From: Myxococcota bacterium
GTDB taxonomy: Bacteria; Myxococcota; Kuafuiibacteriia; Kuafuiibacteriales; Kuafuiibacteriaceae
Assembly: GCA_965223435.1 (NCBI GenBank)
Contig: CBDCWQ010000020.1
Location: forward strand, 661,357 to 725,356
Length of the DNA stretch: 64,000 nucleotides
Reading direction: 5' to 3'
Of the stretch, positions 55,830 to 64,000 are shown in pieces. The notes below the pieces were generated by a model. That model was not told the DNA's origin, did no database searches, and saw only the letters and a program-made list of their open reading frames with translations. Position 1 is the first letter of the stretch, and each line of letters opens with the position of its first letter. The translations under genes and the position numbers were made by a program.

Positions 55830-58800
55830 TCAACGAAGCGAAGCTGCGTCCGCAGGCTCCAAATTTGTGCTCACCGAGGTCAGCCACACGGCCTCTGTTC
55901 TTACAAAGCCTCGGGAGAACAGCTCTTTTTCGAAATGAGGCATGTGGGCCGCACCATATAGAATCGCGATCCGGCCCGAATCCCGTTCCTCGAGCAAGCC
56001 ATCGAGAACCGACAGTACTTTATTGTTCCGAGCGACAATGATGACTTCGCGGTCAAAACCGTCCTCGACCAGAGTATACGGTCGTGCGAACCACTCTTTA
56101 AACAGCAGGTCCCGAAGCTCTGGCGCGATCGTTTGGAACGCAGCGTCGCCCAGACGGCTGGCCGCGATCGTAAACAGGTACTCGAGAGGATGGGGTTGGA
56201 TATAATCGGCGGCGATACTATCCCTCTTCCCTGTCGTGCGCTCAATCTCCTTGGCTTGCTCGGCAATTGTCTTTGCATCGAAATCTACGTGTAAGAAAAG
56301 CTCGGGCGGGCCTTCGATTCTTTGAGACGACAACCCGAACCAACTTTGCTGGAGCGCAAACCCGGCAATCGCATTCCTCATCTGGATGCGTTCCCTTTCC
56401 GTGGGCCCGTAGAATCGACCTTCGTCAGGATCTCTTTCTTCGCTTGTCAGTGAGACCCCTTCGGCCAAGACGAGATCCATCTCGTTGAGATACCTCGAGG
56501 CCTCTTTATAGTATTCGACCCGACCCACATGAATCATTGACACTAGGGAAATCTCGAGGTTCGTTTCGGGGGAGCGATAGCGCGTAATCGCAGTCTTGAG
56601 CAGGGGCAATTCAACGCGGATGAACTCCCCTGGGGTTTTGGAGCCTGAGAGCCCGTGCGCGAAAAAAGGGGTGATCGCAACTTCGACATGCGGAGCGTCA
56701 GGCGAAGAGTCTTTGCCCTCTCTTTGGATCTGGGCGTCCCAGCGATAACGACCCGACTGAAGGTTTTCTGGCATGGTCACCGGCAACGACGCAAATTCAT
56801 ATCCGTCCGTTGGCTCCACAGGCTTCACCGCGTGCGCCACGTGGCCGGTGTCGACGTGCTCCAAGCGAACCAGCAGCTCACGGCCCTTCCCACCAGCCAC
56901 ATAGGATACGCCAAGGTGGTACTCTACTCCGGGCCACAGGTTCACGGGAACGGGATCGCGGAGGGTCTTCCCGCTGACAATTCGAATGCGATCTAGATGT
57001 GAATCTCGCGCCAAAGGCTCATTGCTCTGCTTGGCGCCTTGGATCTGGTTTCGAATTTCTTTGAGATCGTATCCCGAACGGCGAAGCAACTCTTCAAGCT
57101 TCTCGTGGTTGATACTCCCTAATGGGTAGTATCGACCCACTGGGGGCAATCCACCGAAATCGACGGAACCACCCGCAAAAGAAGTCGCGAGAAGTTCTTC
57201 ATCGAGTCTTTGGAATGCTTCAACACCAAGGGCGCCGTAAGACTCCACAAACCCATCCGCATACGCCCTAACGACTCCGGATTCCGCGTCAACAAGCCAA
57301 CGGTAGACGCTCCATTCCGTGGCCGGCCACCTTGTTTGCTCAAGATAGTGTATGTAGTCATCTGTTTGGGACGCTCCGCCGGCCACCGCCGCCAAGCGAT
57401 CGAACAACGTTGGCTCTTCGCGATCAAGAAGCGTTTCGACACCGAAAGGATGTAGGTCAGCCAACAACCGGTCCCGGAAGAACCGGAACCGTGCACCTTC
57501 AGTGTTCCCCGAAGACTCCACCCCCCACGGATCTTCGACAACCTGTCTTACGTTCTGCTCTTCGAGAACGACCGAGATCTCGTACAAGCCTTGGTTGACA
57601 GTTCTCGCGTGCGAATGGACGGCTGAATTGTGTTCGCGAAACCACTTTTCTAAGGTGTTTGCGCCGAGCGCCTGTTGCCTTTTGTACTCCTCCCCTTTTG
57701 GATCAAGTTGCTTTTCGATCTGCTTAAGCTCATCCATGCTTGAATCCACCTGCGCGAAAAGCGTCCTATAAGGCTCTTTGCCGGCGGCGTTTCGAGAAAC
57801 CACTGGGATCCACACCAGTTCTCTATGCTCAACCAGCCACGGAAATTGACTCTGCAGCTCCCCTACCAGATCCAATATCAATGCAATGCGTTCAGACTCT
57901 GCTTCATGGGGTGCAAATGAGAGCCGGCTCACTGTGTATTCGTCCGGATGCGGCTGTTCAACGTGCAACCATTCTCGGTGATAGGCATACGAACCCAGAC
58001 AGCCAGGAATACAACTTGTGCCCTCCTCGATCATATGAACCCAAATCTGATATTGGCCTTCTGCCGGATTCATATTTTCGAGCCAAGAAACGAGAACACG
58101 CTCTTGGGTCGGCTTGCTGCTAAGCGTGGCTGTTTCGTAAAAACCCACGACCTCATCTGTGTCAGAAACCAAATAGAACTGAAGCTTATGCTCTTCGCCC
58201 TTCGTGTCATAACTCACGTCAACCGTGAGCCCGGTGGCATCGATTCGAGGCGAGGAAACGATCTCAACGGCCCCCCATGCCGTTGCAACATTGATGGGAC
58301 GGACCGAGCAAGCCTCGCCTATGCAGAGCTCAATGCCTGCTTTCGTATTTGTGACGTCACCTGGGTTCGAGCCGGGCGTTCCGGCCGACGGATCACCTCC
58401 GCCCAATCGTTCAATCCAATCGCTCACTTCTTGCTGCTTTTCGGCGAACCAAGCTAGGGGCCAAGCGTATTCAAGCGATGGGTCCAATTCTTTGGGAGCC
58501 TTGATGTGAAATCGAATGGCCTCGCCGCCGGCCTCAAAAGCTGCATCGGCCTGCCACAGCAGTTGGTTGAGAGGCTGAATAGGTAAGAGGCTTTGCTCCA
58601 GATAAAATGCGTTGACGAGTATCGCGTGTGCAATCACGACTACCGCATGAACCGAGATCCGGTTGTATTTCGAAAAATTGAAGGGAATACCGAAGCCCTT
58701 CATCACCCCCAAGGTCACAATCCATGGCAGCGCAGCAGCGAGTCCCTTGGTCTCTGGGCCCACACCGAGACCCAGCAACCAGTAGTAGTAGAGGGCAAGA

Positions 58801-64000: not shown

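Follow-up and report, generated by a model that had tools for sequence, protein, structure and literature searches.

A giant gene at the edge of a 64,000-nucleotide stretch of a Myxococcota genome (assembly GCA_965223435.1, contig CBDCWQ010000020.1, positions 661,357 to 725,356; hereafter "the window") encodes a member of a family of giant proteins in which a constant front part is joined to exchangeable and unrelated C-termini. The open reading frame (ORF) lies on the minus strand at window positions 55830..64000, and all of the protein features described below are located on this strand as well. It ends with a TGA stop codon at 55830-55832 and forms a single uninterrupted frame of 2,722 sense codons that is still open at the window edge. 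Its translation is identical to residues 58-2779 of a database protein of 2,779 amino acids, which we refer to as P0001 and whose residue numbering we use throughout. Judged by sequence, the combination of a constant front with swapped, unrelated C-termini is a polymorphic-toxin architecture, and in P0001 the C-terminus is a domain of the TIKI/TraB/PrgY/GumN superfamily. We tentatively favour the reading that P0001 is a Sec-exported, polymorphic-toxin-like effector with this putative hydrolase as its cargo, which we consider a real possibility that stops short of being probable.

A search with the whole protein against approximately 5.8 billion cluster representatives recovered only 14 relatives of P0001, so that the family is extremely rare. 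All of these are between 2,160 and 4,999 amino acids in length, none of them has been named, and they occur several per genome, with up to four on a single contig. Using the invariant motifs as patterns, we found no family members in the GTDB representative genomes or in JGI metagenome contigs. Two parts of P0001, residues ~20-190 and ~320-1630, are common to all members, and similarity stops sharply at the motif WFIDVY (residue 1630), which marks the end of the constant region. Between close paralogues the change to a different C-terminus is abrupt. P0008 to P0011 share 87-90% identity over their first ~2,000-2,190 residues and are unrelated afterwards, the identity between P0003 and P0015 is 97% over 3,660 residues, again with no relation beyond that point, and P0005 and P0007 show 76% identity over 2,145 residues and are essentially unrelated from there on, except for one weak match of 23%. 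This second break in the close paralogues sits after a conserved '...GWVPGSGNLPGRCV' motif and a linker rich in Pro, Thr and Ser. Most of the variable C-terminal sequence is orphan. In the variable part of P0010, residues 2473-2550 match the Scabin-like ADP-ribosyltransferase family PF22596 below threshold (22.2 bits where the cut-off is 27 bits; E 1.4e-4), and retropepsin-type protease domains are present in the variable part of another paralogue according to precomputed Pfam annotations. At the other end of the proteins, the N-terminal segments of P0001 and of the paralogues that we inspected by eye resemble Sec signal peptides.

The 57 N-terminal residues of P0001 lie outside the window. 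By eye they constitute a Sec-type signal peptide, with basic residues and a hydrophobic core followed by ...SGSSA|ISS. An earlier prediction, made from the letters of the window alone, had described a single gene of more than 2,700 residues that leaves the window edge, and the recovered N-terminus bears this description out. The same contig encodes a paralogue, P0002 (2,756 aa), which is 70% identical to P0001 and collinear with it from end to end (residue 1 to 2,777). Searches of Pfam and NCBIfam with the whole of P0001 gave zero matches, and Pfam searches with nine overlapping 400-aa tiles gave nothing relevant up to E = 10. The FN3, BNR and TraB domains named in the original prediction are thus absent from the Pfam and NCBIfam results and would fail by the refuting criterion that came with that prediction, but more sensitive methods rescued most of these calls, and its domain guesses are mostly supported at the level of fold or of superfamily and remote homology.

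The C-terminal domain was placed through its small homologues. A phmmer search with residues 1631-2779 against 1.84 billion representatives (cut-off E<=1e-3) returned 463 proteins, and the best 150 of these, apart from P0002, are proteins of 141-551 aa that cover only residues ~2500-2777. Pfam PF01963 (TraB/PrgY/GumN) is matched by 55 of 85 small homologues, with a best E of 4e-9, and with a profile of the 85 homologues that left out the query, P0001 reaches 158 bits across residues 2511-2774 (55848..56639). Membership in the superfamily rests on these intermediates, because the C-terminal 289-356 residues of P0001 have no direct match to PF01963 even at E = 10. A comparison of the TIKI-domain profile with PDB sequences gave chance matches only, and NCBIfam gave nothing for the domain or for five of its homologues. 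In an alignment of 86 sequences H2547, E2570, D2629, R2714, G2739, H2742 and W2762 are invariant, and N2715 is nearly so. A His, a Glu and a second His are the catalytic residues in enzymes of the TIKI superfamily (PMC6254334), and the corresponding set is intact in P0001 (H2547, 56529-56531; E2570, 56460-56462; H2742, 55944-55946), which makes the domain a putative hydrolase. The profile score, the homologues in PF01963 and the invariant residues together uphold the earlier assignment to the TraB/GumN superfamily. That assignment had been based on paired GxxH motifs, of which the second is present as G-A-A-H, but the first reads S-M-I-H, with S in place of G, and is not a GxxH motif.

The same His...Glu...His pattern and GxxH-type motifs are found in the PF01963 family, in the Tiki1/2 Wnt proteases and in TRABD. 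What further distinguishes the domain of P0001 from the PF01963 family is its fusion to the end of a protein of 2,779 aa. Only P0001 and P0002, among the best 150 of the 463 homologues, are giant proteins that end in a domain of the TraB/GumN branch, and neither phmmer nor the TIKI profile found a TIKI domain in other members of the giant family. We inspected 15 of the standalone TIKI-domain homologues by eye, and all except one truncated sequence have a hydrophobic N-terminus that resembles a signal peptide.

In the constant front part, the signal peptide is followed by a conserved N-terminal domain (residues 58-190 within the window, 63600..63998) that is present in all family members and has no family match. 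The AlphaFold2 model of residues 190-1100 is mixed, with a predicted local distance difference test (pLDDT) score of 62. Residues 210-309 (63243..63542) are confidently modelled as a seven-stranded beta-sandwich (block-mean pLDDT 74-92) of FN3-like shape. The FN3 module proposed earlier is recovered as a predicted FN3-like fold, but P0001 has no match to Pfam FN3; several paralogues are missing the module. Residues 320-970 (61260..63212) are modelled as four-stranded blades that would form a beta-propeller of about seven blades, with long insertions of low confidence. There are two Asp-boxes in this region. The first is degenerate, reading SGSNGERF (residues 426-433, 62871..62894) where the family consensus is S-x-D-x-G-x-x-F, and the second is canonical, reading STDGGIFW (residues 806-813, 61731..61754) and conserved across the family with D and G invariant and S and W nearly invariant. 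The original prediction had seen a BNR sialidase-like propeller here. A propeller with a conserved SxDxGxxW motif is indeed what the model gives, but a likeness to sialidases is not supported, as generic 7-bladed propellers head the structural matches and the first sialidase appears at rank 56, with lectins and lyases among the other matches. There is also no Pfam BNR match in P0001. On the strength of the model, the region is a propeller with Asp-boxes and not demonstrably a sialidase. A variable low-complexity linker with a poorly predicted beta segment follows (residues 971-1094, 60888..61259; pLDDT below 35), and within it P0001 and P0002 have 24% identity over residues 1001-1050.

The paralogues P0004, P0006 and P0007-P0011 are built differently between the N-terminal domain and the propeller, where repeated Ig-like units (PF09136, PF12733 and PF19077 in precomputed Pfam annotations) replace or precede the FN3-like module. 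These same proteins contain a segment that, on inspection by eye, looks like a degenerate peptidoglycan-recognition/amidase_2 domain ('...HHFVLAQKAPGQWEVFEG...IRIAIMGTY...').

The front part closes with a six-hairpin, glycosidase-type (alpha/alpha)6 barrel (residues 1095-1632, 59274..60887), and no other part of the proteins is as well conserved across the family. An AlphaFold2 model built from an alignment of eight sequences is confident (pLDDT 83.6; predicted template modelling score, pTM, 0.88), and a Foldseek search with it returned 40 matches at E<=1e-3, all of them (alpha/alpha)6 carbohydrate enzymes from among the glycoside hydrolases (GH) and sugar epimerases. This agrees with the (alpha/alpha)6 glycoside-hydrolase-like fold suspected earlier, as a fold and not as membership in one family. 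P0001 has the barrel fold in common with six-hairpin glycosidases and epimerases in general (GH76, GH15, GH8, GH63, GH100 and AGE/cellobiose 2-epimerase), whereas its identity to the specific GH and epimerase families is 6-15% and its catalytic residues are not assignable. A profile of the barrel region found nothing among PDB sequences or in Pfam, and neither Pfam nor NCBIfam supported membership in a GH or epimerase family (GH76, GH15, GH8, GH63, AGE and others). Dozens of polar residues in the barrel are invariant across the family, including many acidic residues, His and Trp.

Such a barrel also suits an alternative in which the proteins are secreted or surface-attached enzymes that degrade polysaccharides for feeding or predation. 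The propeller and barrel would then do the enzymatic work, and the variable C-termini would contribute additional enzymes, here a protease or esterase, or modules for binding and anchoring, with neither translocation nor toxin logic. The strong conservation of the barrel with its many invariant acidic, His and Trp residues, its resemblance to glycoside hydrolases and sugar epimerases, the lectins and lyases among the matches of the propeller, the signal peptide, and the lack of an immunity gene at the locus all speak for this view. For predatory bacteria, it has also been proposed that giant proteins with carbohydrate-degrading modules help to attach to prey and to digest cell walls (bioRxiv 10.1101/2023.11.21.568195). 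However, near-identical paralogues that change abruptly to unrelated C-termini point to cassette exchange under conflict and not to ordinary multidomain enzymes. The barrel is also not a member of any glycoside hydrolase family by sequence, and a degradative role leaves the hydrophobic cluster described below unexplained. We regard a plain polysaccharide-degrading role as possible, if somewhat unlikely.

The rear arm of P0001 and P0002 comprises 1,150 residues, and ahead of the TIKI domain it appears to be confined to these two proteins. In the exhaustive phmmer search against 1.84 billion representatives, residues 1633-2510 had no relative beyond P0002 among the best 150 of the 463 matches. 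The arm starts with an acidic post-core segment (residues 1633-1775, 58845..59273), common only to P0001 and P0002, which contains the conserved pair Cys1725/Cys1732. Next come three helix-length segments that form a hydrophobic cluster (residues 1778-1860, 58590..58838), and then an orphan region (residues 1863-2510, 56640..58583), again found only in these two proteins, with two conserved CxxxC/CxxxxC pairs. All 14 cysteines of mature P0001 are kept in P0002, and close pairs are located on either side of the hydrophobic cluster. This cluster is the most hydrophobic stretch of the mature protein and is followed by 917 aa, in agreement with the C-terminal region of ~900 aa described earlier.

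Several measures of hydrophobicity were calculated for the three segments. The 19-residue Kyte-Doolittle peaks are 1.43, 1.61 and 1.91 for segments 1, 2 and 3, and the Eisenberg <H> values of 0.62-0.67, with a low hydrophobic moment, are similar to the 0.65 of the signal peptide. A simple Hessa sum of insertion free energies gave +3.1, +7.2 and +3.9 kcal/mol, compared with +1.6 kcal/mol for the signal peptide, and the same sum gave +5.7, +5.8 and +6.4 kcal/mol for the segments of P0002. By these values the three segments are borderline transmembrane candidates, and weaker ones in P0002. The mid-protein transmembrane bundle of the original prediction thus corresponds to a three-segment cluster at the place that had been proposed (nt 58590-58838), but the hydrophobicity of this cluster is only borderline. 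The net charge is +3 in the loop that joins segments 2 and 3, and both outer flanks are acidic, a charge pattern compatible only with a hairpin made of segments 2 and 3. By the positive-inside rule, such a hairpin would place both large regions of the protein on the same side of the membrane.

Segment 3 (window 58590-58660, residues 1838-1860) also contains an H-x6-H pair, HAVVVIAH in P0001 and HTIATIVH in P0002. The two histidines would share one face of a helix, which would be unusual for a plain membrane anchor.

The original prediction had proposed a membrane-spanning giant enzyme that connects a glycan-processing module to a TraB/GumN-type domain. Worked out further, this would be an enzyme of the producer's own envelope that spans the inner membrane and acts on the cell's own exopolysaccharide, with periplasmic glycan modules, three helices and a TraB/GumN arm beyond them; in a variant, the C-terminal arm would be on the same side as the N-terminal modules if only two helices span. 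The cluster itself is real and its position is kept in P0002, its Eisenberg <H> is near that of the signal peptide, and the basic loop with acidic outer flanks fits a two-helix hairpin anchor. The propeller and barrel folds are common in carbohydrate enzymes, and the Pfam family of the C-terminal domain includes GumN. Set against this, the insertion free energy is unfavourable (+3 to +7 kcal/mol) and is worse in P0002. Three spans would also put the arm in the cytoplasm, and yet the arm has conserved close Cys pairs and its TIKI homologues look exported. Because of the charge pattern, the Cys pairs and these homologues, a three-span topology with a cytoplasmic C-terminal arm is less likely, and the same features argue for both large regions lying outside the cytoplasm and not being separated by the bundle. 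The whole arm is replaced by unrelated sequence in other family members, and for this reason it does not appear to be integral to a conserved envelope machine. The sugar-nucleotide genes of the window (UDP-glucose dehydrogenase and asparagine synthase) are ~50 kb away and have no operon link to the giant gene, whose only neighbour in the window converges on it. The proposed connection to xanthan-type polysaccharide synthesis is not supported, and we found no evidence that the protein bridges a membrane in polysaccharide synthesis. We judge such an envelope enzyme to be unlikely.

Most of the other paralogues have a conserved post-core module just before the junction with the variable C-terminus (P0004-P0011 and P0015, for example residues 1712-1985 of P0008, and more weakly P0012). 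It consists of a single hydrophobic helix, '...LLAAGTALASIVALSTG...', and then 'EPWxFVG...SHVxGGFxTSTxxF...IYGLVKEV...VYRLDT', and could be a pre-toxin or processing module specific to the family. The arm of P0001 was considered as a diverged copy of this module and rejected as such, with an hhalign probability of 0.3%.

The TIKI domain could also have a role other than that of cargo, either as a cis-acting protease that cuts the giant precursor, comparable to the cysteine protease domain of MARTX toxins, or by trimming a partner peptide, comparable to PrgY and TraB. The trimming of signalling proteins or peptides has been attributed to TIKI, TraB and PrgY proteins, as (putative) proteases (PMC6254334, PMC12329661), and the catalytic set of P0001 is intact. 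No cleavage-site motif was identified in support of such processing, however, and since other family members do without a TIKI domain, it cannot be the general processing device of the family. In polymorphic toxins, the effector is normally found at the extreme C-terminus and the releasing peptidases are located upstream, which would be the reverse of what a processing role requires here. We consider a processing role improbable. Last, the possibility that several genes were joined by a sequencing or assembly error is negligible and already refuted, given the 2,722 stop-free codons and the exact match to the deposited protein, and because the collinearity of the 70%-identical P0002 over the whole length excludes a frameshift or fusion artefact.

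In the toxin-like effector that we favour, which belongs to a small and lineage-restricted family, the constant front (signal peptide, N-terminal domain, the optional FN3-like module, propeller and barrel) would recognise, and perhaps cut, a glycan on the surface of a target cell, and the exchangeable rear part would be the payload, with a toxic or effector activity. The payload arm of P0001 and P0002 would then be made up of the acidic segment, the three moderately hydrophobic helices, ~650 orphan residues and the terminal TIKI/TraB-type hydrolase. The helices may serve as a device for membrane insertion or anchoring and not as a housekeeping multi-pass domain, and the TIKI domain may have protease or esterase activity towards a target that does not lie in the cytoplasm of the producer. 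An extracytoplasmic location of the whole protein, which would include export beyond the inner membrane, is suggested because the conserved Cys pairs and the signal-peptide-like N-termini of the small TIKI homologues fit with it. For the hydrolase, the analogue would be RRSP, a TIKI-fold effector of MARTX toxins, and for the helices it would be the hydrophobic translocation helices found in single-chain AB toxins.

A number of points weigh against an effector of this kind. Scans with Pfam and NCBIfam recognised no trafficking, pre-toxin, RHS, HINT or autoprocessing domain, and there is no secretion-system gene among the neighbours that were scanned. No immunity-type gene lies downstream at this locus, where the giant gene is followed not by an ORF on the same strand but by a convergent gene for a tetratricopeptide repeat (TPR) protein. 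The constant region is conserved like an enzyme, which is unusual for a mere delivery scaffold, and the toxin-domain match among the paralogues, that of P0010 to the Scabin-like family, is below threshold. To our knowledge, the standalone TIKI-domain homologues have no assigned function and are not toxins. The further-reaching proposal, that these proteins represent an undescribed class of self-contained, Sec-exported polymorphic effectors with a glycan-breaching propeller and barrel and exchangeable arms, which here would consist of insertion helices and a TIKI/TraB-type hydrolase, appears doubtful to us. It would make P0001 the first case of a TraB/GumN-branch domain used as toxin cargo, and the constant front a delivery scaffold that is unrelated to RHS, contact-dependent inhibition (CDI), MARTX or secretion-system-specific toxins.

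The family resembles the polymorphic toxin systems described in 2012 by Zhang, Aravind and co-workers (PMC3482391) in its constant N-terminus and sharply demarcated, unrelated C-termini, as well as in the junction after a conserved motif and linker, the several copies per genome and the signal peptide. P0001 differs from those systems in having no adjacent immunity gene at its locus, no known trafficking, repeat (RHS or filamentous haemagglutinin) or pre-toxin domain, and a constant region formed by a propeller and an (alpha/alpha)6 barrel. Joining a constant front to a swappable rear is thus a principle already known, whereas this combination of domains in the constant region has not been described for polymorphic toxins, and TraB, PrgY, GumN and erythromycin-esterase domains are not mentioned in that study (PMC3482391). 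TIKI-fold domains have been reported as cargo of giant toxins, namely RRSP (DUF5) in MARTX and the C2 domain of the Pasteurella multocida toxin (PMT; PMC6254334). These are TIKI-superfamily modules within very large exported toxins, and their catalytic His and Glu are also found in P0001. Homology between RRSP and the domain of P0001 was not detected, however; the latter belongs to the TraB/GumN branch, and the first Glu of RRSP is absent from it, the position being occupied by the Met of S-M-I-H. P0001 also differs from MARTX in that no membrane-localisation domain, MARTX repeats or cysteine protease domain were detected.

Single-chain AB toxins, such as diphtheria toxin, CNF1, PMT and TcdA/TcdB, have central hydrophobic translocation helices. 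Their parts come in the same order as those of P0001, with a binding or otherwise large N-terminal region, hydrophobic helices and a C-terminal enzymatic cargo, but they have no sequence similarity to P0001, and a shared mechanism would be entirely conjectural. Similarities can also be drawn to the giant proteins of predatory Omnitrophota (West-Roberts et al., bioRxiv 10.1101/2023.11.21.568195), which, like P0001, are very large, mostly unannotated and predicted to contain membrane segments, and whose modules for attachment and carbohydrate degradation are visible only by structure prediction. The Omnitrophota proteins differ from P0001 in their length of >30,000 aa, their many transmembrane regions and their SecA-like domains, and no homology was seen, none having been tested.

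If the toxin-like reading is correct, the constant front would be a new delivery scaffold for polymorphic effectors. P0001 would also provide a first functional setting for a bacterial TraB/GumN-type domain, from a widespread family whose biochemical role in bacteria is still unclear. On a conservative reading, this is an unannotated family of 15 giant proteins whose constant region has no Pfam or NCBIfam coverage and can now be described as a propeller and a six-hairpin barrel. Its clear exchange of C-terminal cassettes makes it a tractable case for studying how giant proteins diversify.

The convergent TPR gene ends 77 nt from the giant gene and is its only neighbour in the window. Past it, on the opposite strand to the giant gene, are two genes for ArsA-like ATPases and genes for an alpha/beta hydrolase, a TPR protein that binds cyclic nucleotide monophosphates and a DUF4388 protein. 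No link of the giant gene to the ArsA pair and the TPR gene is supported, and as operon partners they are rejected because of the convergent orientation. The two ArsA-type genes are adjacent (window 52251-54573), with listed ORFs that overlap by ~270 nt, the second of which probably has been extended to an upstream TTG, and they are preceded by a gene for a PGAP1-like alpha/beta hydrolase (51309-52244). The GC content at third codon positions of the giant gene is 0.50-0.64, compared with 0.63-0.73 in eleven other long genes of the window, a difference too modest for a claim of horizontal transfer. Overall GC is lowest in the 3' stretch of the gene that codes for the variable arm, at 0.52-0.55 compared with 0.587 for the window. 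Elsewhere, the window encodes a Ser/Thr kinase-TPR protein, an FHA-TPR protein, a TPR protein of 1,042 aa and a ClpA-type ATPase with Clp/AAA domains by Pfam. Among the matches listed for this ATPase, identities of about 60% extend to many phyla, which makes it uninformative for placing the organism. At 34290-41557 there is a gene pair encoding a TamB-like protein (1,328 aa) and an Omp85/POTRA TamA-like protein (1,095 aa), and the organism is therefore a diderm.

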